This document shows, one piece after another, positions 1 through 45,370 of a stretch of 64,000 nucleotides of DNA. The first letter of the stretch is position 1; each line of letters opens with the position of its first letter. Position numbers and translations under genes: made by a program. The notes beneath the pieces were generated by a model. That model saw only the letters and a program-made list of their open reading frames with translations, searched no databases and was not told the origin of the DNA. This DNA is from a virus, in the IMG/VR virus record IMGVR_UViG_3300037512_001384, positions 6,442-70,441 of that record; one strand, written 5' to 3'.

Positions 1-567
1 CAGGTCGCTCAGTTCCAGATTATGACCCGTGGCTTGATTCAGCTCGCCATACGTAGCGGTCAGTACCTCAGAATAACCAACGCCGTTGTACATGAGGGAG
101 AGCTTGTGAAGTATAACCCCTTCACTGATGACTACGAGTTTGACCCGACCAAACGCACAAGCGACAAGGTTATCGGTTATATGGCATACTTCCGTATGGT
201 TGACGGATATGAGAAGTATTTCTATATGACTGAGGCTGAAGTCCTGGCTCATGGCAAGAAATACTCCAAGTCTTTCAACTCCGGTCCTTGGAAGGACAAC
301 ACAGAGGCTATGTGTCTCAAGACCGTGATGAAGTTGCTCCTCTCCAAGTTCGGTATCCTGTCTATCGAGATGCAGCGTGCCATCAAGTATGACCAGGGTA
401 TCGCTAAGGGTGACTTCACTCAGATGGGTAGCGTCGAGGAGATTGACAATGCTGAAGTGGAATATGTCGATAACCCGGAAGAGAACAACAAGCCCGTTGA
501 AGAGAGCGCAGACAACAAGAAGGAAAGGATGCGCAAGGAAAAGAAGGAGAAACCGGAAATGCCGTAA
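1..567 (+). CDS. recT: RecT-family single-strand annealing protein (5' end cut by window edge)
   Basis: Open frame runs from nt 1. Shows RecT-like blocks (GLIQLAIRSGQ, VIGYMAYFRMVDGYEKYFYMTEAEV, SGPWKDNTEAMCLKT) and a K/E-rich tail. Confidence 0.75.
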   Translation, partial: QVAQFQIMTRGLIQLAIRSGQYLRITNAVVHEGELVKYNPFTDDYEFDPTKRTSDKVIGYMAYFRMVDGYEKYFYMTEAEVLAHGKKYSKSFNSGPWKDNTEAMCLKTVMKLLLSKFGILSIEMQRAIKYDQGIAKGDFTQMGSVEEIDNAEVEYVDNPEENNKPVEESADNKKERMRKEKKEKPEMP

Positions 568-570: not shown

Positions 571-2658
571 ATGAACAAATACAGCAGCTACACTCCCGAT
601 GAGATGGATAACCTCCTGTCAGGTTATCTCATCGATTCATGGTCATACAGTAAGGTCAACACCTTCGCCCGTAACGAGAAGCAGTTTGAGAAGAACTTCG
701 TCTATCTCGAACCGGACAAACGCAGTATAAGCTCCATTGCCGGTAACGCCTATCACGAGGCGTTGAGGGTTTTCTTCATGGGCTACAATGAAGGTGCGAA
801 GAAGCCGGATCTTGTGGAGTTGTCAACGGTGGCATATAACTACATAGATGATGTTGACGCTAACACATGGAAGCTCAGTGATACTTATCCTTCCGTTGAC
901 CAGGCAAGAGAGCAATGTATCAAGATTGTCACTCTTCTGATTCAGAACTTCTGCGGCGAGTATGGTATCTATACCGACCATATAGCTGAGGTTCTGTCCG
1001 TCGAGGTCAAGGAAGAGTCTCTGGTGGTCTGCAACGGTGTCGATATCCCATTACCTCTGCATTATATTGCAGACCTTGTGATACGCACAAAGGACGGAAA
1101 GGTTGTCATCATAGACCATAAGAGCAAAAGCGCCTATACCGGTGACGATGAGGTCTCTCTTGTGCATGGTCAGCAGGCTATCGCTTACGTACTCGGATAT
1201 GAGCAGCATGACGAGAAGGATGACCGCCATGTAGATGAGGTCTGGTTCATCGAGAATAAGTATTCCAAGAACAAGAACGGCAGCGAGCAGCTTCGTCTGC
1301 ACCGTTTCGTGATGGATGAGGACTCACGCAAATTGCATGAGTATTATCTCTATCAGCCTCTTCGTCGTATGATAGAAGCTGTGGCTGATCCTGACTACAT
1401 CTACACAATCAACGCATCTGACAACCTTGCTGACAAGGCAGAGCTTTACGAGTTCTCGGCACGCACTCTGATTGCAGAGGTTGATGACTTCCCCAATATC
1501 CCGGAAAGGAAGAAGCCTCTGATAGAGAAACGTCAGCGTAAAATCAAGGACTCCAGCATCGCGATGATTTCACCGCGAGTCATACGTTCATTCAGAAAGA
1601 ATGCAGCATCGTTTATTACTTTCGACTATTCGCATAGCAATATGACAAACAAAGAAAAAATCGAACATAAGTTCCGTACCTTCGGCAAACAGGTTCAGGT
1701 AAGCCATGAGATAGAAGGATTCTCATGTAACACCTATCTGTGTGAGGTGGCGGCAGGCATACCCATCGCTTCTCTTAAGACATACGCGAAGGATATCGCT
1801 TACGCTCTTGATGTTCCGTCAGTACGTGTCGCTCAGGACCTGGTGGTACATGAAGGACGTTCTTATCTTTCCATAGAAGTGAGTAAGAAGAGTTCCGAGA
1901 TACTGGCATGGGATGCCAAATATCTTGAGGGTCATCGCATACCTCTCGGACTTGACAACTTCAAAGAGCCGGTAATATGGGATTTGGAGAACCATTCCAC
2001 TCCGCACATGCTTGTCTGTGGTGCTACCGGTTCCGGAAAATCCGTTCTTATCCGCTCTACTATCGCCTATGCCCTTCTCGCCAAGATGCGCGTTATCATC
2101 ATGGATCCCAAATACGAGTTCTCTGCATTCTCAGACAGATGTGAGGTTCATTCGGATATCGCAGACATAGAGAAACGCATGAAGGAACTTGTTGAGGAGA
2201 TGCAAGCCCGCAAGGGTACTTTCGGCGGTCTCACACTGATAGTATTCGATGAGTTCGCTGATGCAGTTTCATCGGCTCGTTCCGGCAAGGAGCTTGACAT
2301 CAGAGAGGAAGTGACAGTCGGTGAGTATAAGGATGGCAGACCGAAGAAGGAGTGGATTGTCACAGGACGTGACAAGAGTCTGGAAGAGAACCTGCAGATG
2401 CTCCTGCAGAAAGGTCGTTCTCTTGGTTATCGCATCCTGTCTGCCACACAGAGAGCTTCAGCCAAGGTTATCACAGGTGACGCCAAGGTCAATTTCCCAT
2501 GTATCTGTTGTTTCAGAGTACCCAAGGCTCTTGACAGTAAGGTTGTGATTGATGAGGATGGCGCACAAGCCCTTGCCGGTAACGGTGACGGACTGTTCAA
2601 GTCGCCTGAGTACATGGATCGTCTCGTGCGATTCCAGGGATTCTTCTATAAAGGATAA
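571..2658 (+). CDS. RecB-family PD-(D/E)xK nuclease fused to FtsK/SpoIIIE-like ATPase domain
   Basis: N-terminal half has GNAYHEAL, a D...IIDHKSKS PD-(D/E)xK core and a QQAIAYVLGY QxxxY motif (Cas4/RecB-like). C-terminal half has Walker A CGATGSGKS, Walker B LIVFDEFAD and an FtsK-like SATQRAS...FPCICCFRV block. One continuous 695-aa ORF placed directly after recT. Confidence 0.75.
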   Translation: MNKYSSYTPDEMDNLLSGYLIDSWSYSKVNTFARNEKQFEKNFVYLEPDKRSISSIAGNAYHEALRVFFMGYNEGAKKPDLVELSTVAYNYIDDVDANTWKLSDTYPSVDQAREQCIKIVTLLIQNFCGEYGIYTDHIAEVLSVEVKEESLVVCNGVDIPLPLHYIADLVIRTKDGKVVIIDHKSKSAYTGDDEVSLVHGQQAIAYVLGYEQHDEKDDRHVDEVWFIENKYSKNKNGSEQLRLHRFVMDEDSRKLHEYYLYQPLRRMIEAVADPDYIYTINASDNLADKAELYEFSARTLIAEVDDFPNIPERKKPLIEKRQRKIKDSSIAMISPRVIRSFRKNAASFITFDYSHSNMTNKEKIEHKFRTFGKQVQVSHEIEGFSCNTYLCEVAAGIPIASLKTYAKDIAYALDVPSVRVAQDLVVHEGRSYLSIEVSKKSSEILAWDAKYLEGHRIPLGLDNFKEPVIWDLENHSTPHMLVCGATGSGKSVLIRSTIAYALLAKMRVIIMDPKYEFSAFSDRCEVHSDIADIEKRMKELVEEMQARKGTFGGLTLIVFDEFADAVSSARSGKELDIREEVTVGEYKDGRPKKEWIVTGRDKSLEENLQMLLQKGRSLGYRILSATQRASAKVITGDAKVNFPCICCFRVPKALDSKVVIDEDGAQALAGNGDGLFKSPEYMDRLVRFQGFFYKG

Positions 2659-2663: not shown

Positions 2664-3068
2664 ATGCAAGCAACTGGTAAGATTATAGCAATACTTGAAC
2701 CGCGTTCTGGCATTGCAAAGGCATCGGGCAATCCTTGGTTTATCCAAGGGTTCGTGCTTCAGACCGAAGAGCAATATCCGAAAAAGATACCATTTGAGGT
2801 ATCCGGTGAGGATAGAGTCAAGAACTTCAATATCCAAAAGGGTGAGACGCTGACCATCAGCTTCGATATTGACGCGAAAGAATGGAATGGAAAATGGATT
2901 CCTTCTATTCGATGCTTCAATATATCTCGTGGTGACGGTCAGCAGCAAGCAGCTCCGGCTCAAACGCAGAATCAGCAACCCGCACAACATGCTGCACCTG
3001 CACCGCAGGCACCGCCACCTGATCCGTTAGAGACCCAGGGAGGTGCAGATGATGATGTCCCCTTCTGA
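2664..3068 (+). CDS. SSB-like OB-fold protein (DUF3127-like) with SSB-type acidic C-terminal tip DDDVPF
   Basis: 134-aa ORF. MQATGKIIAILEPRSG...NPW...FDIDAKEWNGKW pattern, a Q/P/A-rich linker, and a terminal DDDVPF resembling the bacterial SSB C-terminus (DDDIPF). Confidence 0.6.
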   Translation: MQATGKIIAILEPRSGIAKASGNPWFIQGFVLQTEEQYPKKIPFEVSGEDRVKNFNIQKGETLTISFDIDAKEWNGKWIPSIRCFNISRGDGQQQAAPAQTQNQQPAQHAAPAPQAPPPDPLETQGGADDDVPF

Positions 3069-3424: not shown

Positions 3425-4258
3425 ATGAAAGATTCATTTGTTTTTCATAAAGACTGGTACTTAGCCTTAAAAGGGTTAGACGTTCAAGACAAAGTTGAGG
3501 TCTATGAAGCTATAATGAGCAAAATATTTGATGGTGTAGATAAGAAACTTTCGCCTGTTGCACAGATGGCAATGAATTTTATTTCGCCACAAATTGAAAG
3601 GGATGTTGAACGTTATAATTCCATTTGTGAGCAACGCAAACTATTTGGTAGTAAGGGCGGTATAGCAAAAGCTACCAAAAGCTACCAAAAGGTAGCAAAA
3701 GGTAGCAAAAGCAAGCAAAAGGTGGCAAGTGTAGCTGATAATGATAATAATATATCATCTTCTACTAACGTAGAATCTGATAATGATATTATAGATATAG
3801 AAGTAAAAGATAAATCTTTTCCTTCTAAGAAAAAAAATAAATTATTTATACCGCCTACATTAAACGAAGTAGAGGCGTATGTAAAAGAAAAAGGCTATCA
3901 TTTCAGCGCCAAGGCATTCTTTGACTATTACGAAGCGGATGACTGGCATTACGGCAAAGGCAGTAATAGAACAAAGATATCGAACTGGAAGCGCTGTTGT
4001 GCCACATGGGAGGAGCGGCGTACTACAAGTAATAATATACCTCGTGAACCCGCATCGTTGTTTGATAACCATACTCCCGAACCGGAAGACGAACAGACTT
4101 TATTACAGAAAGCATACGAAGAACTGAACGACACCCAGGAGGCTGAGATATACGGAATGGTCCCCTATGAGTTTCACATGCTGAATGAGAACGGCAAGAA
4201 ATATTGGCGCGAAGTTTACAAGGAAAAGATGCTTGATTGGATCAAGAGCAACAGATGA
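3425..4258 (+). CDS. putative replication initiator (lambda O-like organisation; lysine-rich repeat linker)
   Basis: 277-aa ORF immediately upstream of the primase-helicase, stop overlapping its start (ATGA). Contains an in-gene 10-bp iteron array followed by an AT-rich stretch. C-terminal W-rich block (AFFDYYEADDWHYGKG...NWKRCCATWEER) resembles phage replication-protein C-terminal domains. Confidence 0.45.
   Translation: MKDSFVFHKDWYLALKGLDVQDKVEVYEAIMSKIFDGVDKKLSPVAQMAMNFISPQIERDVERYNSICEQRKLFGSKGGIAKATKSYQKVAKGSKSKQKVASVADNDNNISSSTNVESDNDIIDIEVKDKSFPSKKKNKLFIPPTLNEVEAYVKEKGYHFSAKAFFDYYEADDWHYGKGSNRTKISNWKRCCATWEERRTTSNNIPREPASLFDNHTPEPEDEQTLLQKAYEELNDTQEAEIYGMVPYEFHMLNENGKKYWREVYKEKMLDWIKSNR
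3661..3730. repeat. 10-bp iterons GCTACCAAAA x2 then inverted GGTAGCAAAA x2 (+2 degenerate copies) inside the initiator gene; candidate origin
   Basis: Read directly: aaagctaccaaaagctaccaaaaggtagcaaaaggtagcaaaagcaagcaaaaggtggcaag. GCTACC and GGTAGC are reverse complements. Followed by an ~80% AT stretch at 3735-3860. Confidence 0.6.
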
Positions 4259-6150
4259 GCGACAATATTCTTTATGTAGAGGATTTCAGACACGTCTTAG
4301 GCAGCAGGTCATCAGGTAACATAAAAACCTTCTGTCCTTTCTGCCATGAGAATCGTGGAAACAAGAGGGATAAATCCCTTTCGATAAACTGCGCGACCCT
4401 GGCATATAACTGCCATTATTGCGGTGCGAGCGGTTATCTGAAATCCCGGCATGAGGAAATGATGCGGAGAATAGACAGGGAAACAAGACAGATGTCCAAG
4501 ACTTATCGCAAACCCTCGGTCAAGCCCAACCTTCAACCTAAGCTCAATGCGGACATGGTTGAGTATTTCAAAGGGCGCGGCATCAGCGAGAAGACACTTC
4601 TTGAGGCGAAGGTCACAAAGGAGAATTTCTTTTTCCCGCAAGACAATTGCAAGCGCGGATGTATCGCTTTCAACTACTATGTTGATGACGAGCATATCAA
4701 CACCAAATATCGCACAAGGGACAAGCATTTCGCATTCATTGCCGGTGCCAAGGTAGTCCCCTATAACATAGACAGCATAAGAGAGAGCGCATTCAAGAAG
4801 GGTGAAAAGAAAATCTGCATCATCACTGAAGGTGAAGCGGATACTCTCACTTATATCGAATGCGGCTATAAGCATGTCATATCCATGCCGTCCGGTGCTA
4901 ACACCAATCTGGAATGGATGGATGACTTCACCGAATCCCACTTTGATAAACTTGAACTGATTTATGTATCGACAGACAGTGACAAGAAGGGTGTTGAAGC
5001 CAAGAATGAGATAGTACGAAGGTTTGGAGCTGAAGTATGTAAGATAGTTGAGTATCCGGAAGACTGCAAGGATATAAACGAGGTTCTTGTCAAATATGGA
5101 CCGGAGAAGGTAAAGGAATGCTTCGAGGGTGCTGCGGATATTAGAATCCAAGGTGTCGAGGAACTTGTTGACATAGAGTCAGACCTTGACAACCTGTTTA
5201 CTTCGGGACTTCAAAAGGGAGTAACCCTGGGATTGGAGGATATGGATAAACTTCTGTCCTTCAATACCGGAATGGTGACGGTCGTTACAGGAATCCCTTC
5301 GCACGGCAAAACCCAATGGTTGAATTTCGCTCTGATCAGACTCAATATCCTTCACTCATGGAAGGTGGCGTTCTTCTCTCCTGAGTTCTATCCTGTAGCG
5401 CTGCATATATCCCAAATCATAGAGACGCTTGGAGGTAAAAGGTTCTCATCCCAGAACTATACGCCTCAGACTTACGGCATCCTGAAGGAGTATGTCAACA
5501 AGAATTTCTTTTGGGTGGATCCTGATGACACGGATATAAGCTCAGTCTTGGACAGAGCCAAGTTCCTCATCCGCAAGAGAGGTATCAAGGCGTTTGTGAT
5601 TGACCCTTTCAATTCGCTGACAGACGAGAAGCGAACGATATACAAGCAGGATGAATATATTTCGGACTTCCTGCAGAAGATACGATGGTTCGCCAGGAAG
5701 TATGACGTTGCAATGTTCATCGTCATGCATCCCACCAAACAATACAAGCAGGATAACGGCTTATATCCGGTCTGTGACCTGTACTCATGTAAGGGTGCAT
5801 CTGAGATATACGACAAGGCTGATATCGGCATCACCGTATGGAGAAACGAGCAGGGTAATTACGGTGAGGTGCATGTGACCAAGATGAAGTTCCGTCACAT
5901 GGGACAGAAAGGACATGACACTTTCGTCTATAACTTCAATAACGCCCGGTTCGTTGAGATTCCCACTATGGACGCGAAGCGTGTGGCTCCCGACATGGAT
6001 AAAGTGAAGTGGGATAACAGCAATTATGTAATTGAGAATATCAAGACGCAGCAGAATCAGCAGGAATTGGATTTTGGAGCGGAGCAGCCGGAAACACCAC
6101 ATAATGAAAAACCCTTTGATGCGCCGATAGACGAAGATATCCCGTTCTGA
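4255..6150 (+). CDS. bifunctional DNA primase (Zn-finger + TOPRIM) / DnaB-like helicase
   Basis: CPFCHENRGNKRDKSLSINCATLAYNCHYCG zinc finger; TOPRIM ICIITEGEADTL; Walker A GIPSHGKTQW; Walker B AFVIDPFNSL. ATG at 4255 overlaps the upstream stop (an in-frame ATG at 4237 is the alternative start). C-terminus ends in an SSB-like DEDIPF. Confidence 0.85.
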   Translation: MSDNILYVEDFRHVLGSRSSGNIKTFCPFCHENRGNKRDKSLSINCATLAYNCHYCGASGYLKSRHEEMMRRIDRETRQMSKTYRKPSVKPNLQPKLNADMVEYFKGRGISEKTLLEAKVTKENFFFPQDNCKRGCIAFNYYVDDEHINTKYRTRDKHFAFIAGAKVVPYNIDSIRESAFKKGEKKICIITEGEADTLTYIECGYKHVISMPSGANTNLEWMDDFTESHFDKLELIYVSTDSDKKGVEAKNEIVRRFGAEVCKIVEYPEDCKDINEVLVKYGPEKVKECFEGAADIRIQGVEELVDIESDLDNLFTSGLQKGVTLGLEDMDKLLSFNTGMVTVVTGIPSHGKTQWLNFALIRLNILHSWKVAFFSPEFYPVALHISQIIETLGGKRFSSQNYTPQTYGILKEYVNKNFFWVDPDDTDISSVLDRAKFLIRKRGIKAFVIDPFNSLTDEKRTIYKQDEYISDFLQKIRWFARKYDVAMFIVMHPTKQYKQDNGLYPVCDLYSCKGASEIYDKADIGITVWRNEQGNYGEVHVTKMKFRHMGQKGHDTFVYNFNNARFVEIPTMDAKRVAPDMDKVKWDNSNYVIENIKTQQNQQELDFGAEQPETPHNEKPFDAPIDEDIPF

Positions 6151-6691: not shown

Positions 6692-6704
6692 AATATGCCT
6701 ATAA
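6692..6704. repeat. right inverted repeat of MTase inverton (AATATGCCTATAA)
   Basis: Perfect 13-bp reverse complement of 6163-6175. In both orientations it encodes residues N-M-P-I in frame. Confidence 0.8.
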
Positions 6705-7108
6705 TGCCTTCGGGTAACAGGCAGACGATGGCTACGCACGGGCATCAGCGATGGAGGTTCAAGAACCTTCAGGATGATGGACAGCAACCCAATTCGATGC
6801 ATATCAGACGTGCTGCCGGATTGCCGGACCAGCAATATCCGGTCAGAAACAAAAGGGATGTATGGAGTGTAGCCACCAAACCTGAGAAGGCGGCTCATTT
6901 CGCTGTCTATCCCGAAGAGCTCATCAGACCTTGCATCCTTGCCGGATGTCCGAAAGGTGGCCTGGTGCTTGACCCGTTTATGGGAAGTGGCACGACAGCC
7001 AGGGTCGCCCGTAAGTACAATCGCAACTTCATAGGGTATGAACTGAACCCTGAATATATCAAGATTATCAATCAGAAGACGGTGGTGACACCGGACTTGT
7101 TCTCATAG
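6692..7108 (+). CDS. N6/N4 DNA methyltransferase, 3' half (HFAVYPEEL...DPFMGSGTT...), in frame with the right inverted repeat
   Basis: DVWSVATKPEKAAHFAVYPEELIRP and the motif-I VLDPFMGSGTTARVARKYNRNFIGYELNPEY match the C-terminal half of a beta-class MTase. The ORF is open from the IR; the first ATG is at 6695. Confidence 0.75.
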   Translation, partial: NMPIMPSGNRQTMATHGHQRWRFKNLQDDGQQPNSMHIRRAAGLPDQQYPVRNKRDVWSVATKPEKAAHFAVYPEELIRPCILAGCPKGGLVLDPFMGSGTTARVARKYNRNFIGYELNPEYIKIINQKTVVTPDLFS

Positions 7109-9292: not shown

Positions 9293-9363
9293 GGTCGTAT
9301 GGCGTAATGGTAGCGCAACAGACTTTGGTTCTGTGTGTCCCGGTTCGATTCCAGGTACGACTA
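9293..9363 (+). tRNA. tRNA-Gln (anticodon TTG)
   Basis: Cloverleaf folded by hand: acceptor GGTCGTA/TACGACT (G-U closing), D-arm GCGT-AATGGTA-GCGC, anticodon arm ACAGA-CTTTGGT-TCTGT (U33, TTG, G37), T-arm CCCGG-TTCGATT-CCAGG (one C-A mismatch), discriminator A. Confidence 0.65.
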
Positions 9364-9498
9364 CAAATTATTTCAGGGGAAATAAAACCTGAATCGGGGA
9401 AATTTTATCGCCCCAAAATGTGAGAGAAAGGCAATATTGGGAAATCAAAGGAAAATTTCCCCTGTTTTTCAGGTCAAACGGAACAACAAGAAAACAAC

Positions 9499-13554: not shown

Positions 13555-14334
13555 ATGGGTACAAAAATAGAGTGGACCAACAAGGTATGGAATCCCGTAT
13601 CGGGCTGCACTAAGGTCAGTGAGGCTTGCCAGAACTGTTATGCTGAAGTGATGGCAAGACGTCTGAGCGGAATGCCTGGCAGCAAGGAGAAATACAAGGA
13701 TGGATTCAAGGTGACGATTCACCCGGAAAGCCTCTATGAGCCTTACAAGTGGAAGAAACCATGCATGGTCTTCGTTTGCTCTATGGGCGACCTGTTCCAT
13801 GATGATGTTCCTATCCAGTTCATTGACGAGGTGATGAACGTGATCAGCGAGAATCCGCAGCACACGTTCCAAATTCTCACCAAGCGGGCTGGAGCGATGT
13901 ATTCATATTTTCAACATGAGGATGTTCCGAAGAACGCATGGCTCGGTGTCACCTGCGAGAGTGCCAAACATTATGACAGGGTGAGTCTTCTCCGTGATAT
14001 TAACCGTGTGAGTCTTCTCACCGATTTCCATAGCAAGACTGTCAAGTTCCTGTCATGCGAGCCTCTGTTGGGTGACATGGCGGATATAAACCTTGACGGT
14101 ATTGATTGGGTGATTACAGGAGGCGAAAGCGGTTCGCGAGCCCGAAGGACACCGATTGAATGGTTTCGGAATCTTCGTGACAGGTGTGTCGAGACCGGCA
14201 CGCCTTTCTTTTTCAAGCAATGGGGTGCGTTCGGCCCGGATGGTATCAAACGCAGCAAATATCTGAACGGTTCTGTACTGGACGGTCAGCAGTGGAAACA
14301 GATGCCACTTATAAAGCAAGACGATAATGATTGA
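13555..14334 (+). CDS. phage Gp37/Gp68-family protein (DUF5131)
   Basis: IEWTNKVWNPVSGCTKVSEACQNCYAE, CSMGDLFHDDVP, QHTFQILTKR and FLSCEPLLGD blocks typical of this family; directly upstream of a C5-MTase. Confidence 0.65.
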   Translation: MGTKIEWTNKVWNPVSGCTKVSEACQNCYAEVMARRLSGMPGSKEKYKDGFKVTIHPESLYEPYKWKKPCMVFVCSMGDLFHDDVPIQFIDEVMNVISENPQHTFQILTKRAGAMYSYFQHEDVPKNAWLGVTCESAKHYDRVSLLRDINRVSLLTDFHSKTVKFLSCEPLLGDMADINLDGIDWVITGGESGSRARRTPIEWFRNLRDRCVETGTPFFFKQWGAFGPDGIKRSKYLNGSVLDGQQWKQMPLIKQDDND

Positions 14335-16063
14335 CGAATTAGACAAGCAACTGCAGTATATCAAGACTTGCCCTCACTATACGGTCTTTGCCATAGACCT
14401 TTTCTGTGGCGCGGGCGGTGAAACGACAGGTATTGAACTGGCTATGGTGGATGGTAAGAAATGCGCCAAGGTCATAGCCTGCGTCAACCATGATCCGAAC
14501 GCTATTGCATCTCATGCTGCGAATCACCAATCCGTTCTGCATTATATCGAAGATATACGTACCCTCAACTTAGGCGGATTGGAGCAGTTGACGGAAGCTG
14601 TCCGGACTTTTCATCCAGGTTCATATATCCTGTTGCACGCTTCACTTGAATGTACAAACTTCTCCAAGGCCAAGGGTGGTCAACCACGTGACGCAGACTC
14701 CCGAACTCTGGCTGAGCATCTATTCCGATACATTGAGGCTATCAGACCGGATTATATCCAGATAGAGAATGTGGAAGAGTTTATGTGCTGGGGAGAGCTC
14801 GACAAGAACGGCAAGCCTTTGAGTAAAGACCGGGGTAGCAGTTATGTTCGTTGGGTGAACAACGTCAAACATTATGGGTATGATTTTGACTACAGGTTGC
14901 TTAACGCAGCTGATTTTGGCGCATACACAAGCCGTAAGCGCTTTTTCGGTCTTTTCGCCCGTCATGGATTACCGCTTGTCTTCCCGCATCAGACCTATGC
15001 GAAGAACGGTGACGAAGGTGGGCTTTTCCATCAGTACCGGAAATGGAAACCTGTACGTGAGGTGTTAGACCTGCAGGATGAAGGGGAAAGCATCTTTGGT
15101 AGAAAGAAACCGTTATGTGAAGCTACATTGGAGCGCATCTATGCAGGATTGGTGAAGTTTGTGGCAGGAGGTAAGCAGAAATGTGACGCCTGGATCCTAA
15201 AGTACAACTCCATGAATAAAGATAGAAGCCATAATGCACCCTCTATCGACGAGCCCTGTCCTACTGTTGCTGTGCAAAACAGATTAGGTTTATGCAAGTG
15301 TAATTTCCTGAGTCTGTATTATGGTGGCGCAGAGCATAACCAATCTATTGAAGAGCCAGCGGGTACTGTGACAACCAAAGACCATCATGCTTTCCTTTCG
15401 GTTCATTATGGACACGGTTGTAATAGAGATATTGACAAGCCTTCACCTACTGTGACATGCCAGGACAGAATTGAGCTTATTTCAAGCCAGTTCTTTGCCA
15501 ATGAGTATAGTGGCGGAGGACAGCTTTCTGATATAGAGAAACCTTCACCCGCTATACTTACCAAACCGAAACAGCATTTAGTCACGGCTAAACGCTGGCT
15601 GGCGAATACCAACTTCAAGAATGTGGGTAGCAGCATAGATTCTCCAGCACCGGTAGTGACAGCCAACTATAAGTACCACTATCTGATGAATCCGCAGTTT
15701 GCATCTGCAGGAGGTTCCATAGACAAGCCCTGTTTCACATTGATAGCCCGGATGGACAAGATGCCTCCGTATCTGATAAGCACAGAGAGCGGAGAAGTCG
15801 GAATCGCTGTATATGATTCGGATTCATCAATGACGTGCAAGGTCAAAGAGTTCATGGCTGCATACGGTATAGTGGATATCAAGATGCGTATGCTGAATGT
15901 GGGTGAACTTAAACGTATCATGGGCTTCCCTGATGATTATGTGCTTATCGGCACTCAGGCAGAGCAGAAGAAATATATAGGCAATGCCGTGGAGGTAAAT
16001 ATGTCCCGTATGTTATGTGAAGCACTTGCTACTAAATTAAACCTCACAAGACAAGCAATATGA
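14327..16063 (+). CDS. DNA (cytosine-5) methyltransferase
   Basis: Motif I AIDLFCGAGG; ECTNFS (motif IV-like); QIENVEEF (ENV motif VI); long variable region; 578 aa. Confidence 0.8.
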   Translation: MIDELDKQLQYIKTCPHYTVFAIDLFCGAGGETTGIELAMVDGKKCAKVIACVNHDPNAIASHAANHQSVLHYIEDIRTLNLGGLEQLTEAVRTFHPGSYILLHASLECTNFSKAKGGQPRDADSRTLAEHLFRYIEAIRPDYIQIENVEEFMCWGELDKNGKPLSKDRGSSYVRWVNNVKHYGYDFDYRLLNAADFGAYTSRKRFFGLFARHGLPLVFPHQTYAKNGDEGGLFHQYRKWKPVREVLDLQDEGESIFGRKKPLCEATLERIYAGLVKFVAGGKQKCDAWILKYNSMNKDRSHNAPSIDEPCPTVAVQNRLGLCKCNFLSLYYGGAEHNQSIEEPAGTVTTKDHHAFLSVHYGHGCNRDIDKPSPTVTCQDRIELISSQFFANEYSGGGQLSDIEKPSPAILTKPKQHLVTAKRWLANTNFKNVGSSIDSPAPVVTANYKYHYLMNPQFASAGGSIDKPCFTLIARMDKMPPYLISTESGEVGIAVYDSDSSMTCKVKEFMAAYGIVDIKMRMLNVGELKRIMGFPDDYVLIGTQAEQKKYIGNAVEVNMSRMLCEALATKLNLTRQAI

Positions 16064-20211: not shown

Positions 20212-20736
20212 ATGAAACGTGATGTGTGGAAAGACGTAAAAGGCTATAAGGGTCTTTATAAGATAAACCGTGAAGGTGTTGTCATCAACAAACGAGGCAA
20301 GGTGGTAGGGACAGAGTTGTCGCAACGAGGTTACGTGCGCGTCAGACTGTATAAGAACAACGTCAAGAAGAATCATAAGGTTCACCGCTTGGTAGCCCAG
20401 GCTTTCATCCCCAACCCCAGACGTCTGTCACAGATAGACCATATCAATGGTGATAAGACGGACAACAGAGTCCAGAACCTTCGATGGATGGACAACAGAG
20501 AGAACAACAACGCATTCAAGAGTGAACATCTGAACAAGCAGCCGGTGGTAATCATCGGCTGTTTTGGTGAAATACTGAGATACTTCTCTTCATTACGCGA
20601 AGCAGCATCTGCCATAGGTGTCAGCAGGCATGGTATTTCAGCCGCCTGCCGTGGATTACAGAAGACATCAGGCGGTTATTCATGGCGTTTCGTGACTGAA
20701 GCTGAATTTGCTTTGTTCAACAGGAAGGCTGTATGA
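20212..20736 (+). CDS. HNH homing endonuclease (HNH_3 + NUMOD-like tail)
   Basis: WKDVKGYKGLYKINREGVV, VHRLVAQAFIPNP and HINGDKTDNRVQNLRWM (HNH). C-terminus VVIIGCFGEILRYFSSLREAASAIGVSRHGISAACRGLQKTSGGYSW (NUMOD-like). Confidence 0.8.
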   Translation: MKRDVWKDVKGYKGLYKINREGVVINKRGKVVGTELSQRGYVRVRLYKNNVKKNHKVHRLVAQAFIPNPRRLSQIDHINGDKTDNRVQNLRWMDNRENNNAFKSEHLNKQPVVIIGCFGEILRYFSSLREAASAIGVSRHGISAACRGLQKTSGGYSWRFVTEAEFALFNRKAV

Positions 20737-20770
20737 CATATACGGCCCGGAGAAAAACAATATCATTCTA

Positions 20771-21745
20771 ATGTATCGAAAAAAGAAACCGGCAGGTTTT
20801 GATGAACGTCTTCAGTGGTCTATCAATTTGTTGAAGAAAGCAGAAAAACTCGCTTTGCAATATGATCCTGATGACGGATTCTATTTAGCCTTCTCAGCAG
20901 GCAAGGATTCCCAAGCATTATATCACATCGCCAAACTTGCAGGTGTCAAGTTTCAGGCTCACATGAACTTTACGAGTATTGACCCTCCAGAGGTTATTCG
21001 CTTCTGTCGCGAACATTATCCTGATGTCATAACTCATGCACCCGAGGACAGCATCTACAATATTGCCGTAAACGGGAAATATCTGCTGCCTTCACGTATC
21101 ATTAGATGGTGCTGTGCCATTCTTAAAGAGACTGGAGGTGCCGGTACGGTCTGTCTTACAGGTGTACGCAGACAGGAAAGCATCAGACGCTCCAAACGTA
21201 ACAGCGTTGAAGTTAGCAACAGCTCCTTCTCCGGGGACCTCGATGCCTTCGAGACGTGGAGAAAAGAGAAGATTGCCAAGAAGATTCAGCATCTCAACCA
21301 GGACCAATTCAGTGAACAAGACGAGGAACAAATCAGATGTATCGGCGGCAAGGATAAAATCATTGTCAATCCGATAATAGACTGGTCTGAGTCTGATGTC
21401 TGGTATTTTCTCAACGAAGTTGTGAAAGTGCCTCACTGCTCGCTATATGACAGAGGATATAAACGTATCGGATGTATCTGCTGTCCTATGGCAAATTATA
21501 AGCAGAAACTCATCGAATTGGCGGATTACCCCCATGTCAAGCGCAACTGGATAAATGCCATCAAGCGGATACGCGAGCAGGGTATCGCAAAGAATATCCT
21601 GACAGAGAACTATTTCGGCAATGGTACGGAAGACGAGATATGTGAGAACATCTTCCAATGGTGGATCAGCGGGAAATCCTATGACGAATGGTATGCTGAG
21701 ACATTCCTTCAGCAAAGGATTGATTTTGGAGAGGAACAACAATAG
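20771..21745 (+). CDS. PAPS-reductase-family PP-loop ATPase with C-terminal Cys cluster (IbrA/DUF3440-like)
   Basis: PP-loop AFSAGKDSQAL; C-terminal RIGCICCPMA; sits directly upstream of the flanked MTase. Confidence 0.65.
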   Translation: MYRKKKPAGFDERLQWSINLLKKAEKLALQYDPDDGFYLAFSAGKDSQALYHIAKLAGVKFQAHMNFTSIDPPEVIRFCREHYPDVITHAPEDSIYNIAVNGKYLLPSRIIRWCCAILKETGGAGTVCLTGVRRQESIRRSKRNSVEVSNSSFSGDLDAFETWRKEKIAKKIQHLNQDQFSEQDEEQIRCIGGKDKIIVNPIIDWSESDVWYFLNEVVKVPHCSLYDRGYKRIGCICCPMANYKQKLIELADYPHVKRNWINAIKRIREQGIAKNILTENYFGNGTEDEICENIFQWWISGKSYDEWYAETFLQQRIDFGEEQQ

Positions 21746-22486: not shown

Positions 22487-23245
22487 ATGCTTCATGGGGA
22501 TTGCCTTGAACTTATGCGGGATATTCCGGATAAGAGTATCGACATGATTCTGAGTGATCCGCCTTATGGAACGCTAAACAAGAGCAACCCGGATGCGCAA
22601 TGGGATAAGGAAGTTGACCTTAAGGCATTATGGAGGCAATACAAGCGCATCATCAAGCCCAACGGTGTCATTCTTCTGTTCGGTCAAGGTGTCTTTGGAG
22701 CCAAGCTGATTATGAGTAACCCGAAATGGTTCAGATATGACTTCGTTTGGGATAAGGTCAGGAAATCCAATTTCCTTAACTGTAAGAAGATGCCGATGCG
22801 TCAGCATGAGCAGATATTCGTGTTCTACGGCAAGCCGCCTCTGTATAACCCTCAGATGGTCCGGTGCAAGGAGTCTCAGAAGAACCACAGCAGAGGCACG
22901 ACAGGACGAGAGCAGAAGACCTCCTGTTACGGCAAATACAACGTGACGGAAACCATAGATACCGATTACAAGTATCCCGGAACTATCGTTCGGTTTCCCA
23001 AAGGGCACAGTAAGGAAGACTGGAAGCACGGGACAACCAAACCGGTCAATCTCTTGCGTTATCTCATCAGGACATATTCCAAAGAGGGTGATGTCATCCT
23101 TGACAATTTTGCAGGATCCGGCAATACACTGATTGCCGCCATCAAAGAGAAGAGAGACTGGATAGGTATGGAGATATCGGATAAGTTCTATGCTTTGGCT
23201 CAGCAACGTATAAATGACGAACTAAGAGAACCAACTTTATTCTGA
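22487..23245 (+). CDS. N6-adenine/N4-cytosine DNA methyltransferase (beta class), MTase B
   Basis: DMILSDPPYG, WKHGTTKPV, ILDNFAGSGNTLIAAIKEKRDWIGMEI; 252 aa. Confidence 0.8.
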   Translation: MLHGDCLELMRDIPDKSIDMILSDPPYGTLNKSNPDAQWDKEVDLKALWRQYKRIIKPNGVILLFGQGVFGAKLIMSNPKWFRYDFVWDKVRKSNFLNCKKMPMRQHEQIFVFYGKPPLYNPQMVRCKESQKNHSRGTTGREQKTSCYGKYNVTETIDTDYKYPGTIVRFPKGHSKEDWKHGTTKPVNLLRYLIRTYSKEGDVILDNFAGSGNTLIAAIKEKRDWIGMEISDKFYALAQQRINDELREPTLF

Positions 23246-26667: not shown

Positions 26668-27510
26668 TTATGTGCCGGTGAAGAACCCCATACCGCTCAA
26701 GTCGAGATTATCGGCATCCACGCAGATGTAACGTGATGTCATGTTCTCGTTCTTGTTGTGGTTCATCAGGGCGCAGATGACGGCACGCGGCACACCGCGC
26801 AGAGTCAGGTTGGTGGCGAAGGATCTCCGGGCCGTATGACTCCCGACATACTCGTACTTGGGTCGCGTCTGCGTCTTACCGTGATAGAATATCTTGGTTT
26901 CCTGACTGATACCGCATCGGCGACAGATACGTTTGATGACATCGTTATAAACGGCTCTGTTATGTTCGCCGGTGGGCTTGTACTGCAGGTAACGCATGAG
27001 GTTGCGATGTATCGGTATGGAGCTCTCCACCTTCGTCTTCTGACTCACATAACACAGTCTGCCGTCAATGATGTTATGCTCGGTGAATGACTTGACATCG
27101 GACGTCCTGGCACCGCAGTAGCACTCGATGAGGAAAGCCGCCTTGATGTCCCGTTCCGTGTCATTATGGGGAACATATCGTTCGATACGCTCTATCTCCT
27201 CTTCCGTGAGATAGACGTTCTGTGACGGCACTCTCTTAGCCTTCAATTCCTTCCCGGGATTCTTACAGGGGAATAAATTCTCATCCAGATAAGCGGAAAG
27301 GAAAGCCTTCAATACGGCGAGATAGGTACATGCCGTATTACCGGCTACGTTGTCACAGATATTATCCCTCATCTCGGACAGGTTAAGCGTCGTGAGGTCG
27401 CTCCACTGCACCTCCTGAACGCCTATCGCATCACGCATATACCGAAGGATATGCGCATAGCTGGGTTGTCTTCTGACAAACTCCTGCTCAAAACTTAAAA
27501 TTCCGTTCAT
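26668..27510 (-). CDS. small tyrosine site-specific recombinase (Xer/invertase-sized, 280 aa)
   Basis: C-terminal catalytic region HTARRSFATNL...RGVPRAVICALMNHNKNENMTSRYI (R...HxxR...Y). No large N-terminal arm-binding domain. Confidence 0.8.
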   Translation of the reverse strand: MNGILSFEQEFVRRQPSYAHILRYMRDAIGVQEVQWSDLTTLNLSEMRDNICDNVAGNTACTYLAVLKAFLSAYLDENLFPCKNPGKELKAKRVPSQNVYLTEEEIERIERYVPHNDTERDIKAAFLIECYCGARTSDVKSFTEHNIIDGRLCYVSQKTKVESSIPIHRNLMRYLQYKPTGEHNRAVYNDVIKRICRRCGISQETKIFYHGKTQTRPKYEYVGSHTARRSFATNLTLRGVPRAVICALMNHNKNENMTSRYICVDADNLDLSGMGFFTGT

Positions 27511-27696
27511 ATCATTTGGTTTTTATTGATTACGACGAGTGAAGCCGGACAATATCCCATCGTCCGGCTCCTGATTAACCTAAATACTTATGTGGTAAAA
27601 ACGTACACACGAAAGTATGTGTAAACATGTTGACCACACTGCTACGACTATGGTAATCTTGCTGCCGGAGGACGTTTTACCGTCATCCGGCATTGT

Positions 27697-29073
27697 TTAC
27701 AGGCGCAGTGTACCCGCTCTTGCCGCCTCACAGCGTCTCAGCACCTCCTTACGGTCACGTATGAGTATCCTGGCTCTCATATCCATACCTTCGCCCGTGG
27801 GCTTATCCAGGACACCTATCGCAACCATCGTGAGGAAGTCCTCGATTGCCATACGGCGTGTAAGAAGGAAGGGGAACATACCGAAGTTACGTGGCGTCAA
27901 CTCTGTCCTGCCTTGTGACTCCTGCAGGAAGAGGCATTCGGGTTGTCCCTTGATAGTAACGGTGACACATGGCGCATCCTCCTGTCCCGGGATGTCAAGC
28001 ACGGAACCGGTAAATGTACCTCTGCAGACAAGGTTGAGCAGTATAGCATCCTCGATGTACTCCGTATCTGCATATCCGCATTGTACGCGCACGTCATCAA
28101 TGCCGTCTGAGTAGAGCATATCACCCTTACCCATCAGGTCCTCGGCACCGGTATGGTCGAGGATGACACGCGAATCAATACCCGATGCGACGCGGAACGC
28201 GATACGTACCGGGAAGTTCGCCTTGATGTTTCCTGTCACGATGGTCGCCGACGGACGTTGCGTGGCTATGATCATGTGGATACCGACGGCACGGGCTTTC
28301 TGTGCGATACGGCATATCATACGCTCCATATCCTTCCCGGCTGTCATAATAAGGTCGGCATACTCGTCTATGACCACGATGCAGTAACGCATGTAGTCTT
28401 CACCGTTGAGCTTGTCATTATACTCTTTGATGTTACGTACTCCTTTCTGCGAGAGAAGGGTGTAACGGTACTCCATGAGGTTAATGACACGCTGCAGGAT
28501 AGCGACAGCATCCTCTGTGGTCGTGGCTATGTCATCGGCGAGATACTTGTGCCAGAGAGGAGCGTAGATGTTGAGCTCAACCTGTTTGGGGTCGATGAGC
28601 ACCAACTGCATCTCTTCCGGTGTGCGCTTGCTCATCAGTGAGAGCAGCAGCATGTTCAGGCATACCGACTTACCTTGACCGGTCGCACCGGCAATAAGCA
28701 GGTGCGGCATCTGTGTGAGGTCACGGATGAAGAGTTCTCCCTGTACCGTCTTGCCTATGGCGCATGGAAGTGCCATCCTGCAGGACTCGTAATCGACATG
28801 ATGCAGAACGCTGTCCATGTGTACTATCTGACGTTGGAAGTTGGGAACCTCAATGCCAATCGTACCGCCTGCGAGCGGTCCCATGATGCGTACCGACTCC
28901 GTACCGACCGCCAAGGCAAACTCATCAGCGAGTCTGCGTACACGTGTCATATTCACACCCATATCCGGTCTGAACTCATACAGGGTGACGCTGGGTCCTT
29001 TCGTGACTCTCCAGCTCAGCGGTTCAATCTTATGAACCCTGAGCACCTGTTCTAACTTGTAAGTGTAATCCAT
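27697..29073 (-). CDS. FtsK/SpoIIIE-family DNA translocase (motor + gamma-like domain)
   Basis: Walker A IAGATGQGKS; Walker B IVVIDEYADL; IATQRPSATIVTGNIKANFPVRIAFRV; C-terminal winged-helix-like EDFLTMVAIGVLDKP. Start MDYTYK is preceded by the conserved array upstream element. Confidence 0.8.
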   Translation of the reverse strand: MDYTYKLEQVLRVHKIEPLSWRVTKGPSVTLYEFRPDMGVNMTRVRRLADEFALAVGTESVRIMGPLAGGTIGIEVPNFQRQIVHMDSVLHHVDYESCRMALPCAIGKTVQGELFIRDLTQMPHLLIAGATGQGKSVCLNMLLLSLMSKRTPEEMQLVLIDPKQVELNIYAPLWHKYLADDIATTTEDAVAILQRVINLMEYRYTLLSQKGVRNIKEYNDKLNGEDYMRYCIVVIDEYADLIMTAGKDMERMICRIAQKARAVGIHMIIATQRPSATIVTGNIKANFPVRIAFRVASGIDSRVILDHTGAEDLMGKGDMLYSDGIDDVRVQCGYADTEYIEDAILLNLVCRGTFTGSVLDIPGQEDAPCVTVTIKGQPECLFLQESQGRTELTPRNFGMFPFLLTRRMAIEDFLTMVAIGVLDKPTGEGMDMRARILIRDRKEVLRRCEAARAGTLRL

Positions 29074-29320
29074 AATGATTGTTTGAGTTATTATTGGCGG
29101 AGCAGCTGATGTCACTCAATCAGCTCCAGGACGTGGGATTTGTCCTTTGGAAAAGTGATGCGCACCCATGTCAATGAGTACGCATCTGTTTAACTCTTTA
29201 AATACTACAACTATGCGCCTCACGGCGTTCGTATGTAATAATTAGCACAAAGATAAGGATTCGCCCTTATCCTTGTATGGCGATGTTAATCCTTAACATA
29301 GTTAATGTACGGATTTAACA

Positions 29321-43768: not shown

Positions 43769-44473
43769 AGTTCAAGAGAATCTTCTGCGCACAGACATTC
43801 GATCATCTCCTCCGCTCCCAGTCTTTCAAGCAGCTTGGAGGATAACCTGATAAATTCTTTCATAGTTGCGCGTATTTAAGGTTAAACAATATTCGTAAGC
43901 GGACCGGCAATCTTTCAGCCGTTCCGCCCTGTCCTGTGTCTTTCATCTCTCAGGCGTTTTCCAATAGATTCTAAGTTTAACCATAACTCTGAATCCCACA
44001 GCTCCGGCCTACCGGAGATTCCAGCGGAATTATTCTCAGGCGGAAAAGGGAAATAAATTCCGGTCCGCGAGGAAAGCCCAGGGATTCGCGTAACGATACG
44101 CAAATCCGCATAATCCGCTGATTAGGGATGATGTTCAACGCTGCCGTATAATCCGCGCTCCGATTACTCACTGTTTCGGCTTTCATCTTTCACTACTTGC
44201 CTATATCACTTTCAAACGGAGTGCGCCCTGATCCTGCACGCAGCGCAAAAGCACCGGTACAGGACCGCACGGGAACAGCGCCCGCTATCCGCCAGCTCTT
44301 TGCAGAACAGCCGGAAATATTCGCGTCCAATATGTCAATGTACGTTTTATTAACTTGCACCCTTCACGGAATCCAACCGCGCCCAGATAAGCAGCTCACC
44401 TGGGTTGCAAAAAGGGTATGATCCAAGCGCCCACCTGATAGGCAAATCCTTTCAGATAGGCACAAAAAAGATA

Positions 44474-44500
44474 GGCGGCGGAAAGTATCCGCCACCTATC
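44474..44500 (-). terminator. candidate terminator for the first array gene
   Basis: GGCGG...CCGCC hairpin followed, on the minus strand, by a U-run (tatcttttttgtg). Confidence 0.35.
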
Positions 44501-44515
44501 AAACAGGGTTAAAAT

Positions 44516-45100: not shown

Positions 45101-45180
45101 AGTTGTAATATTTAAGAGTTAATAAAATAGTGTCAAAGTGCGCATATCGGAAACACCTTTCCGACACTATAAAATTACAA

Positions 45181-45370
45181 AAATAATCCGATATAATGCC
45201 AATATTTGTATATTTAACTTATGTTTAATTGATTGATATATAGTAAGTTATAAAGAAAGATTATACAATATTGTAGTATATATACAGGTTATTATTGTAT
45301 ATATACATAGATAGTTAATTATATAATAACTTAAATATATAGATATTTAACGGAAAAATACTTACAAATT
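45181..45370. other. ~80% AT stretch with TATATA-type repeats (candidate DNA-unwinding element of an origin)
   Basis: Base composition read directly; ORF-free. Confidence 0.45.

Follow-up and report, generated by a model that had tools for sequence, protein, structure and literature searches.

The window (the whole 64,000-nucleotide stretch of viral DNA that was analysed) opens with the 3' part of a gene encoding a RecT-family single-strand annealing protein (SSAP; Pfam RecT, E 1.6e-26; phrog_148, E 5.7e-45), the complete 270-aa version of which is found at L001:9185-9997. ORF analysis of the window placed the start codon of the next gene 3 nt past the stop of the RecT gene. This second gene, hereafter the fusion, encodes a nuclease domain and an FtsK-like motor in the same polypeptide, and is itself followed by a gene for an SSB-like protein belonging to a family (phrog_4932) of single-strand DNA binding proteins. 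Together with RusA and a primase-helicase, which are also encoded around the fusion, these genes form a replication/recombination module. The coordinates of these features, and of genes lying further away in the window, are collected in the table.

Features of the fusion locus and of other relevant genes (nucleotide positions in the window; amino acids numbered in the fusion protein)
Feature	Position	Strand	Remarks
RecT-family SSAP	1..567	+	C-terminal 188 aa; N-terminus cut by window edge
C-terminal tail module of RecT, KKERMRKEKKEKPEMP-COOH	517..564	+	candidate docking peptide
Nuclease-FtsK fusion gene	571..2658	+	695 aa, ATG start, single uninterrupted ORF
RecB/Cas4-like PD-(D/E)xK nuclease domain	571..1470	+	aa 1-300, N-terminal
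PDDEXK_1 (PF12705) match	637-1311	+	aa 23-247, E 1.1e-9 (Pfam)
Catalytic core of the nuclease	1072..1188	+	D168, D182-x-K184, Q202xxxY206
D168	1072-1074	+	nuclease residue
D182-x-K184	1114-1122	+	nuclease residues
Q202xxxY206	1174-1188	+	nuclease residues
Inter-domain linker	1471..1635	+	aa 301-355
FtsK alpha domain	1636..1881	+	aa 356-437; FtsK_alpha PF17854, E 2.5e-7
FtsK beta (RecA-like) ATPase domain	1939..2646	+	aa 457-692
Walker A	2020-2043	+	beta domain
Walker B, D560/E561	2248-2253	+	beta domain
Variable beta-hairpin insertion	2266-2379	+	aa 566-603
R616	2416-2418	+	beta domain
Q627/R628	2449-2454	+	beta domain
DUF3127 / SSB-like protein ending ADDDVPF	2664..3068	+	Pfam DUF3127 E 1.6e-24; phrog_4932 E 4.9e-14
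Tyrosine recombinase and second FtsK-like gene (pair)	26668-29115		
Second FtsK-like gene	27697..29115	-	adjoins tyrosine recombinase
SPP1-type portal	53591-55348	-	same genome as fusion
Canonical large terminase (Terminase_6N)	55360-58152	-	same genome as fusion

A previous sequence-only reading had proposed that the 695-aa frame joins a RecB/Cas4-like nuclease to an FtsK/SpoIIIE motor, and domain searches (Pfam, PHROGs) assigned both halves as claimed. In the N-terminal half, which possesses the PD-(D/E)xK core fold, PHROGs exonuclease families match aa 24-226, in line with the PDDEXK_1 match. All the motifs quoted in that reading (GNAYHEAL, IIDHKSKS, QxxxY, CGATGSGKS, FDEFAD and ATQRAS) were found, and the key residues are invariant in an alignment of 34 diverse fusions. 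These residues are D168, D182, K184 and Q202, plus G58, in the nuclease domain, and G484-K490, D560, E561, R616 and Q627, which align with the FtsK motifs, in the motor; Y206 is also invariant, in a separate family alignment. The proposed likeness to Cas4 stood for the PD-(D/E)xK and QxxxY signatures, but not for the Fe-S cluster: the four cysteines of the subgroup comprising Cas4, AddB and Dna2 are missing, with no cysteine among the invariant or near-invariant columns of the nuclease domain in the family alignments, and the N-terminal motif of the domain reads SWSYS...FARNEK where Cas4 presumably has Cys-Pro. By sequence profile, the nuclease domain had no match in the PDB, and its structural relatives (RecB-family) came from the fold search alone.

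The C-terminal half possesses the alpha domain and then the RecA-like beta domain of FtsK/SpoIIIE motors, with Walker A and B, the conserved glutamine and the conserved arginine (R616, a putative arginine finger). Pfam FtsK_SpoIIIE (PF01580) matches aa 457-552 (E 4.6e-13), a PHROGs FtsK/SpoIIIE-like family aa 326-693 (E 1e-42), and the solved FtsK motors 2iuu/2ius aa 308-692 (E 3e-28). The winged-helix FtsK_gamma domain is absent, as judged from Pfam and structure comparison, and the protein stops 3 residues past the beta domain. As judged from the domain matches and the model, there is no N-terminal membrane anchor either, the N-terminus being the globular nuclease domain (pLDDT mostly >90). 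The AlphaFold2 model (mean pLDDT 89.2) comprises two confident domains and a linker, with an inter-domain geometry that is not confident (pTM 0.54); the linker consists of a conserved basic helix followed by a disordered segment (aa 346-353). A structure search of BFVD returned no viral protein spanning both domains (query TM-score ≤0.40).

The second FtsK-like gene of the window, the resemblance of which to the C-terminal motor half of the fusion had been noticed from the sequence, aligns with the motor region at 26% identity (E 1e-24), and the two are distant paralogues. This gene bears on the possibility that the fusion is a DNA pump, operating in packaging, concatemer processing or the FtsK-XerCD style of dimer resolution and segregation, with the nuclease cutting concatemers. 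Such a role is very unlikely, even though membrane-containing viruses rely on FtsK/HerA-superfamily ATPases for DNA packaging, a terminase large subunit family (phrog_2666, E 7e-11) matches the Walker region of the fusion and an ATPase joined to a nuclease has the layout of a terminase. First, the phage encodes its own terminase and portal, as well as a capsid protein, elsewhere in the window, so that packaging is not driven by the fusion. Second, the fusion lacks the gamma domain required for a KOPS/dif-type guidance. Third, the separate FtsK-like gene, which lies beside a tyrosine recombinase gene, is a better candidate for resolution.

The fusion recurs as a conserved gene across hundreds of phages of Bacteroidota. 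In total, 2306 homologues were found, and a relative is encoded on at least 496 IMG/VR stretches. The nuclease domain is matched by 133 representatives of 50%-identity clusters, 44 of which are full-length fusions (selected by length and Walker A motif), and the fusion loci belong to Bacteroidales, Chitinophagales and Flavobacteriales, with cultured isolates such as Parabacteroides sp. AM08-6, Chitinophaga tropicalis and Tenacibaculum sp. C7A-26P2 among them. Genome contigs queried with the single protein gave no match, and a narrower alignment query gave matches. Among the cultured phages of INPHARED (tblastn), no record covered at least 80% of the fusion protein, the matches being confined to the FtsK half with less than 60% identity. 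We found no account of a nuclease-FtsK fusion in the literature searched, and it may have been mentioned in the FtsK-HerA literature.

The sequence-only reading had allowed for a frameshift at the junction of the two domains, and this junction proved to be intact. Four lines of evidence virtually dismiss the view that a sequencing or assembly error fused two neighbouring genes, one for an FtsK-like ATPase and the other for a RecB-like exonuclease. First, the identical 695-aa protein was recovered on independent contigs from different sources (JGI and ENA). Second, 136 of 150 related loci possess the full-length protein as one continuous ORF. Third, the architecture persists while the identity of the nuclease domain drops to about 25% among the matches listed. 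Fourth, invariant residues (R321, K324 and D327) occur inside the linker, in its basic helix. On the other side, an artefact could be argued from rare relatives with a frameshift, which falls between the two domains in L232 and in the late part of the ATPase domain in L070, and from the existence of standalone homologues of the nuclease domain. Two such homologues are encoded directly after RecT (L235 and L236), and for this reason the nuclease of the fusion was probably derived from an ordinary RecT partner. The L237 and L238 loci, which we had considered as a split pair of nuclease and FtsK genes, turned out to encode the fusion in its full length, with in-frame TGA codons as the sole interruptions, and they thus provide no evidence of gene fission; L237 is a diverged, apparently TGA-recoded locus. 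As judged from its sequence relatives, the fusion is old and under selection.

The sequence-only reading had also viewed the fusion as the partner of RecT, a view that was strengthened by the comparison of loci. A co-oriented gene lies directly upstream of the fusion in 134 of the 136 loci, the gaps being mostly -3 to +7 nt, and up to about 200 nt in a few clusters. The products of these 134 genes comprise 67 members of recognised SSAP families (48 RecT, 13 Sak4/AAA_24, three ERF and three Rad52-like), 63 unannotated phrog_3657-like proteins (one of them encoded at L003:3854-4681) and four other proteins. The phrog_3657-like family, which had no match in a profile search of the PDB, aligned with RecT profiles (hhalign) over one segment only, the C-terminal tail; it is a candidate SSAP by virtue of its position and tail, and not demonstrably an SSAP. 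This change of SSAP family before a constant fusion is what gene swapping within SSAP-exonuclease modules is expected to produce. Furthermore, 50 of 80 RecT loci devoid of the fusion possess a YqaJ (lambda-Exo-type) exonuclease gene directly downstream of RecT; the fusion thus stands where related modules carry a known recombination exonuclease.

Most of the proteins encoded upstream of the fusion end with the same tip, x[DE][ML]P-COOH. The [ML]P-COOH end was found in 103 of the 134 fusion-linked proteins, across unrelated families, and in none of the 80 RecTs without fusion (0/80), a comparison in which the host phylum was controlled through a Shine-Dalgarno proxy only (like the fusion loci, most of the 80 controls make little use of Shine-Dalgarno sequences). 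The remaining 31 of the 134 proteins lack [ML]P, and the tip is also missing at L237. Among the 377 ORFs of the window, that of RecT is the sole one with a [DE][ML]P end. These data suggest that the tip is a docking peptide common to the SSAPs that partner the fusion; alternatively, its target could be a factor of the host, for instance SSB. The C-terminal domains of SSAPs are believed to bind both the exonuclease partner and the host SSB, and it is unknown whether annealases beyond Red-beta, RecT included, bind their partners through a similar domain (PMC11611040).

Both the position of the gene and the tip weigh against the fusion being a weapon, i.e. a translocase-coupled nuclease degrading host or competing-phage DNA for host takeover or superinfection exclusion, in the manner of DndH/SspH or HerA-nuclease systems. 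Pairings of nucleases with HerA/FtsK proteins are used in defence systems too (PMC10853773). We nevertheless regard this role as rather unlikely: in 134 of 136 loci the gene keeps its place between an SSAP gene and replication genes, and it is a positional substitute for YqaJ; the SSAP tail co-occurs with the fusion; and no Dnd/Ssp partner genes lie nearby. As to membership of a known defence system, it was rejected, the PADLOC models matching only the generic ATPase domain (aa 458-692).

The observed features are the domain architecture, the conservation of the residues needed for catalysis and ATP hydrolysis, a gene order with the fusion behind an SSAP gene, and the link between tip and fusion. 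From them we propose, as the likely interpretation, that the fusion supplies the exonuclease of a two-component phage module, the SSAP being the other component. Here, a small passive ring exonuclease of the lambda Exo/YqaJ or RecE type would be replaced by a RecB-family nuclease attached to an FtsK alpha-beta motor. We infer that, at the ends of double-stranded DNA, the FtsK halves would form a hexameric ring powered by ATP. The translocating ring would then feed one strand, presumably the 5' strand, to the attached nuclease domains, so that ATP-coupled resection in the 5'-3' direction would generate a 3' single-stranded tail. Finally, the upstream SSAP (RecT here) would be recruited by the fusion through its C-terminal tip (...KPEMP-COOH), and loaded on the 3' tail for annealing. 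A ring shape is regarded as fundamental to processive recombination exonucleases (PMC11611040).

One aspect of this scheme invites another recombination mechanism. The FtsK motors move on duplex DNA without unwinding it, and consequently the delivery of a strand to the fusion nuclease is unexplained. The FtsK ring might rather be a branch-migration or fork-remodelling motor, or a scaffold for oligomerisation or SSAP loading, with the nuclease acting as a structure-specific endonuclease. The fold search is compatible with this idea, the RecB-family fold being shared by Dna2, MGME1 and similar flap- or structure-specific nucleases, as is the presence of RusA just upstream in a related phage, which makes junction processing a part of the module. 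We consider this mechanism unlikely, however: the enzymes positionally replaced are YqaJ-type exonucleases, the invariant Walker A/B, arginine and glutamine argue for an active ATPase and not a passive scaffold, and junction resolution is already supplied by RusA.

Going beyond the motorised exonuclease that we favour, it is conceivable, with somewhat less than an even chance, that the FtsK-ring exonuclease is a universal hub into which any SSAP family plugs through a portable [DE][ML]P-COOH peptide. This would hold for the RecT, ERF, Rad52-like and Sak4-like families, and for the phrog_3657-like proteins as a previously unrecognised family. C-terminal signal peptides are bound by EccC and the coupling proteins, which are FtsK-like ATPases, and the FtsK-like domain of the fusion may recognise the tip in much the way that EccC recognises secretion signals. 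Such a hub, if it exists, would mean a new class of recombination exonuclease, driven by a motor, together with a transferable docking code and a new SSAP family.

Recombineering rests on phage SSAP-exonuclease pairs, and a widespread FtsK-fused exonuclease would show that phages also use an ATP-driven, HerA-NurA-like resection. The fusion would offer a compact, single-polypeptide model of a duplex-DNA ring translocase coupled to strand-specific degradation, and the SSAP tail tip is a candidate docking code between annealase and exonuclease. Candidate tools for dsDNA recombineering in Bacteroidota are the cognate pairs of SSAP and fusion in prophages of Bacteroides, Parabacteroides, Flavobacterium, Chryseobacterium or Tenacibaculum.

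A translocase-coupled exonuclease had been called an unusual design from the sequence alone; this holds for a module of the Red/RecET type, but the design is not unprecedented, as translocase-nucleases exist elsewhere (HerA-NurA, DndH). Similarly to lambda Red (Exo + Beta) and Rac RecET, the module lies in an early operon of the phage and pairs an SSAP gene with an adjoining PD-(D/E)xK nuclease gene, and the fusion stands in the position of the YqaJ/lambda-Exo-type enzyme of related RecT loci. Lambda Exo and RecE are ATP-independent rings, whereas the fusion possesses a complete FtsK alpha-beta ATPase, so that both its ring and its movement would be ATP-driven. In addition, its exonuclease is RecB/Cas4-like (PDDEXK_1), not YqaJ or RecE, and one exonuclease family would serve at least four SSAP superfamilies through the common tail tip. 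The SSAP C-terminus may serve partner binding in the fusion modules, as it likely does in lambda Red/RecET (PMC11611040).

The HerA-NurA system of archaea and Deinococcus also combines a hexameric ATPase of the FtsK/HerA superfamily with a nuclease for end resection (PMC3326311, PMC5715905, PMC9960219). The fusion does not belong to it: its ATPase has an alpha domain and belongs to the FtsK, not the HerA, clade; its nuclease is PD-(D/E)xK instead of the NurA fold; its single polypeptide would give six nucleases per ring; and its partner is a phage SSAP, not Mre11-Rad50/RadA. DndH/DptH and SspH are proteins of about 1500-1800 aa, with many extra domains, encoded with DndFG/Ssp partners. The 695-aa fusion, which matches them by its ATPase half alone and lies in a phage SSAP/replication context, is not a member of that group either. 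Unlike cellular FtsK/SpoIIIE, it has neither the N-terminal membrane domain and long linker nor the KOPS-reading, XerD-activating gamma domain, and it bears a nuclease at its N-terminus; it is also unlike type VII secretion EccC and the conjugative coupling proteins, which are membrane-associated ATPases for protein or DNA export. As compared with RecBCD/AddAB/AdnAB and Dna2, the fusion is much smaller, its motor is an FtsK-family ring translocase, not an SF1 helicase, and it has neither the conserved Fe-S cysteines nor an evident Chi-type regulation. By analogy with these systems, we infer that the fusion would work like HerA-NurA or AddAB, as a member of neither family.

The sequence-only reading had described a RecB-family nuclease joined to an FtsK-like motor in one frame behind recT. 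This was confirmed by the single ORF, by the Pfam search of both halves (table) and by two further comparisons. In PHROGs, residues 24-226 match 'exonuclease' families and residues 326-693 are FtsK/SpoIIIE-like (E 1e-42); at E about 1e-28, the FtsK motor structures 2iuu, 2iut and 2ius align to residues 308-692, a stretch that includes both the alpha and the beta domain. With only three residues past the beta domain, the protein has no gamma domain. The domain junction, where a frameshift would have refuted the same reading, is intact: the identical protein occurs on independent JGI and ENA contigs, which led us to reject a sequencing or assembly artefact, and the full-length gene is a single unbroken ORF at 136 of 150 related loci. 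The remainder are mostly truncated where a contig ends; in addition, L070 is frameshifted late in the gene, and L149 and L150 hold only FtsK-like relatives.

Homologue searching retrieved 2306 proteins (E <= 0.001); among the 120 matches listed, all are 656-708 aa long with 57-100% identity, and all but three combine the nuclease Pfam family with FtsK families. With the nuclease half (residues 1-330) as query against 1.84 billion cluster representatives, 133 proteins matched, with nuclease-domain identity down to about 25% among the matches listed; 44 were selected as full-length fusions by length (590-800 aa) and a Walker A motif. When 34 diverse members are aligned, invariance coincides exactly with the functional positions, namely G58, D168, D182-x-K184, Q202, K230 and Q240 in the nuclease, and the Walker A glycines with K490, D560/E561 (Walker B), R616, Q627, D673 and Q689 in the ATPase, indicating purifying selection on both enzymatic halves. 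In the fusion, a RecB-family nuclease whose active site is intact is covalently joined to an FtsK motor whose ATPase motifs are likewise intact. Among these 34 members the nuclease domain has no conserved cysteine, so the Fe-S cluster found in Cas4, AddB and Dna2 is missing. Frameshifts occur inside the fusion of two relatives, L232:373-2350 (exactly at the nuclease-domain end) and L070:2104-4213 (after residue 566); sequencing error or prophage decay may be the cause, and these two account for some seemingly standalone nuclease entries in databases.

The AlphaFold2 model (input, 34 diverse homologues; mean pLDDT 89.2) comprises two confident globular halves separated by a linker disordered at residues 346-353; its pTM of 0.54 means that the relative orientation of the halves is not predicted. 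The basic linker helix is conserved, with R321, K324 and D327 invariant. No function is attached to the beta-hairpin insertion at residues 566-603, since it is variable and missing in some members. The second FtsK-like gene cited by the sequence-only reading is also real: its product shares 26% identity (E 1e-24) with the C-terminal half of the fusion, and cellular FtsK is much closer to it than to the fusion. This 472-aa alpha+beta protein has no gamma match and carries a C-terminal extension of about 115 aa without Pfam match; together with the adjacent tyrosine recombinase, it may constitute a phage-encoded FtsK/Xer-like resolution pair.

Features of the fusion gene and its surroundings (window nucleotides unless stated)
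Feature	Position	Strand	Remarks
RecT gene	1-567		N-terminus lost to window edge
C-terminal module KKExLKxK...x[DE][ML]P-COOH	517-564; also L003-L150 (related loci)		RecT, Sak4-like, ERF, Rad52-like and phrog_3657-like proteins
Nuclease-FtsK fusion gene	571..2658	+	single ORF, ATG start, 695 aa
PDDEXK_1	fusion aa 23-247		Pfam E 1.1e-9
FtsK_alpha	fusion aa 356-437		Pfam E 2.5e-7
FtsK_SpoIIIE	fusion aa 457-552		Pfam E 4.6e-13
DUF3127 / SSB-like gene	2664-3068		downstream of fusion; protein ends ADDDVPF
DUF6291 gene			downstream of fusion
Primase-helicase	4237-6150		downstream of fusion; ends IDEDIPF
Anti-restriction set	6695-7108, 14327-16063, 20708-21745, 22487-23245, 39005-39997 (-)		at least three DNA methyltransferase genes, PAPS-reductase-like gene, ArdA
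tRNA-Gln (anticodon TTG)	9293-9364		phage early region
Tyrosine recombinase	26668-27510	-	280 aa; beside second FtsK-like gene
Second FtsK-like gene	27697..29115	-	
P4/D5-type primase, SPP1-type portal and capsid protein genes			downstream of fusion
Large terminase	55360-58152	-	930 aa; Hom_end aa 283-345, then Terminase_6N aa 433-688

The proposal that the fusion is the exonuclease partner of RecT was supported by its position. In the window it starts 3 nt past the RecT stop codon, and 134 of the 136 loci have a gene in the same orientation whose end lies near the start of the fusion (gap mostly -3 to +7 nt, up to about 200 nt in a few clusters). The upstream families are mutually unrelated: phrog_3657-like without Pfam match (63 loci), RecT in three BLAST clusters (48), Sak4-like AAA_24 (13), ERF (3), Rad52_Rad22 (3) and singletons (4). 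A constant nuclease beside interchangeable annealases is the signature of phage SSAP (single-strand annealing protein)-exonuclease modules. None of 80 control IMG/VR RecT loci (42-54% identity to the RecT of L001, a contig encoding the identical fusion protein) contains the fusion; 50 of them have a YqaJ (lambda-Exo-type) exonuclease directly after RecT, showing that the fusion occupies the exonuclease slot of the SSAP module. The nuclease half also has homologues that stand alone (291-304 aa, 33-39% identity) and that in loci L235 and L236 directly follow RecT; this suggests that the fusion descended from an ordinary RecT-partner exonuclease. We consider it likely that the fusion is an SSAP-partner exonuclease. 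The phrog_3657 family ('unknown function'; about 275 aa; representative L003:3854-4681), which precedes the fusion in the SSAP position and bears the same tail as the other families, has no Pfam or PDB sequence match and is a candidate SSAP family, either new or highly divergent.

Whichever family they belong to, the proteins encoded upstream of the fusion share a C-terminal tip, ...[KP]x[DE][ML]P-COOH (KEKPEMP in the window RecT; EDMP, IELP, VDLP or FDMP in other loci), which, we propose, probably acts as a portable peptide for docking to the fusion. First, an [ML]P end is present in 103 of 134 such proteins but in 0/80 control RecTs; 125 of the 134 have [ML] as the penultimate residue and P, L, S, A, Y or K as the last. 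Second, since Shine-Dalgarno usage, a proxy for phylum, is low in most controls as in the fusion loci, this difference is unlikely to be only a host-phylum effect. Third, when the profile of the phrog_3657-like family is compared with that of RecT, the alignment is confined to the final ~38 residues (KKExLKxK...[DE]LP). Fourth, RecT is the only one of 377 window ORFs (>=50 aa) with a [DE][ML]P end. Alternatively, the tip could bind host SSB instead of the fusion. The genes downstream of the fusion vary among loci (DUF3127, DUF4494, others), so that the fusion is the only constant neighbour. The tip is absent from both RecTs beside standalone nucleases without FtsK half (n=2), which is only a hint that it goes with the motor half. 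Docking to the fusion would have a parallel in the FtsK-like EccC, whose structure was solved with a bound C-terminal signal peptide (PDB 4n1a).

RecE, Cas4 and Dna2 relatives degrade DNA 5'-3'. In the mechanism we propose, the FtsK halves would form their usual hexameric ring on duplex DNA ends, the FtsK domain both supplying and powering this ring, whose use of ATP would drive DNA towards the tethered nucleases; these would degrade one strand, presumably 5'-3', and the SSAP, recruited by its tip, would be received on the resulting 3' tail. As a review notes, recombination exonucleases that act processively depend fundamentally on a ring shape with a central channel (PMC11611040). We give this specific ATP-driven ring resection even chances, and place somewhat more confidence in our overall reading of the fusion.

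The whole window is phage, and in a related contig lysis genes, an integrase, an HTH gene, RusA and RecT lie just upstream of the fusion. A role as packaging motor was ruled out, because a canonical terminase and portal are present in the same window. In that terminase, the Hom_end match preceding Terminase_6N suggests a putative homing-endonuclease or intein insertion. The ends of the DUF3127 / SSB-like protein and the primase-helicase look like the acidic DDDIPF tip at the C-terminus of bacterial SSB, a likeness suggesting that both may dock to the same SSB-tail-binding partners. At ~44000-46000, GC, at first about 0.41-0.49, climbs to about 0.53 near 46 kb, with phage genes on both sides (replication and anti-restriction versus P4/D5 primase, glycosyltransferase, portal, terminase and capsid); this may reflect a mosaic genome or a junction of two elements.

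The fusion is widespread, yet only generically named in the sources searched ('PD-(D/E)XK nuclease family protein', 'DUF87 domain-containing protein', 'DNA segregation ATPase FtsK/SpoIIIE'). Relatives are encoded by at least 496 IMG/VR stretches, the contigs of the best 80 being mostly tens of kilobases long, and the fusion is carried by 68 GTDB species genomes, almost all Bacteroidota. Cultured isolates include Parabacteroides sp. AM08-6, Dysgonomonas sp. 511, Chitinophaga tropicalis, Flavihumibacter petaseus, Paraflavitalea pollutisoli, Tenacibaculum spp., Chryseobacterium spp., Flavobacterium fluvii, Wenyingzhuangia and a Puniceicoccaceae strain (43% identity). The full fusion was absent from the INPHARED phage collection, and both domains together from the viral structures of BFVD. 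One relative (L126) was binned to Candidatus Gracilibacteria. A distant homologue (L237:4001-5875, also L238; 25% identity), whose accompanying RecT lacks the [ML]P tip, has TAA as its stop and no interruption other than three in-frame TGA codons; since one TGA aligns with the nearly invariant G670, we suggest that this phage may read TGA as Gly, i.e. have a recoded host. TGA encodes Gly in genetic code 25.

By its alpha and beta domains and motifs, the fusion belongs to the FtsK/SpoIIIE motor family, but it lacks the gamma domain and membrane anchor of FtsK/SpoIIIE. Its nuclease is RecB-family PD-(D/E)xK and, having no Fe-S cysteines, not a strict Cas4. Combinations of nucleases with HerA/FtsK are documented in defence systems (PMC10853773); DndH/SspH membership was rejected, as the match is limited to the ATPase half and the proteins differ in size and context. 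Our full-text literature search (FtsK/HerA with SSAP/exonuclease), whose scope did not extend to the 2004 FtsK-HerA survey, found no paper describing the fusion in a recombination module. On balance, we favour a motorised exonuclease in a Red/RecET-type module. Its proposed action is like that of AddAB, AdnAB and Dna2, and also like that of HerA-NurA, where end resection is carried out by a nuclease coupled to a hexameric ATPase of the FtsK/HerA superfamily (PMC3326311, PMC5715905, PMC9960219). We rejected membership of HerA-NurA itself, whose ATPase belongs to another clade and whose nuclease has another fold.
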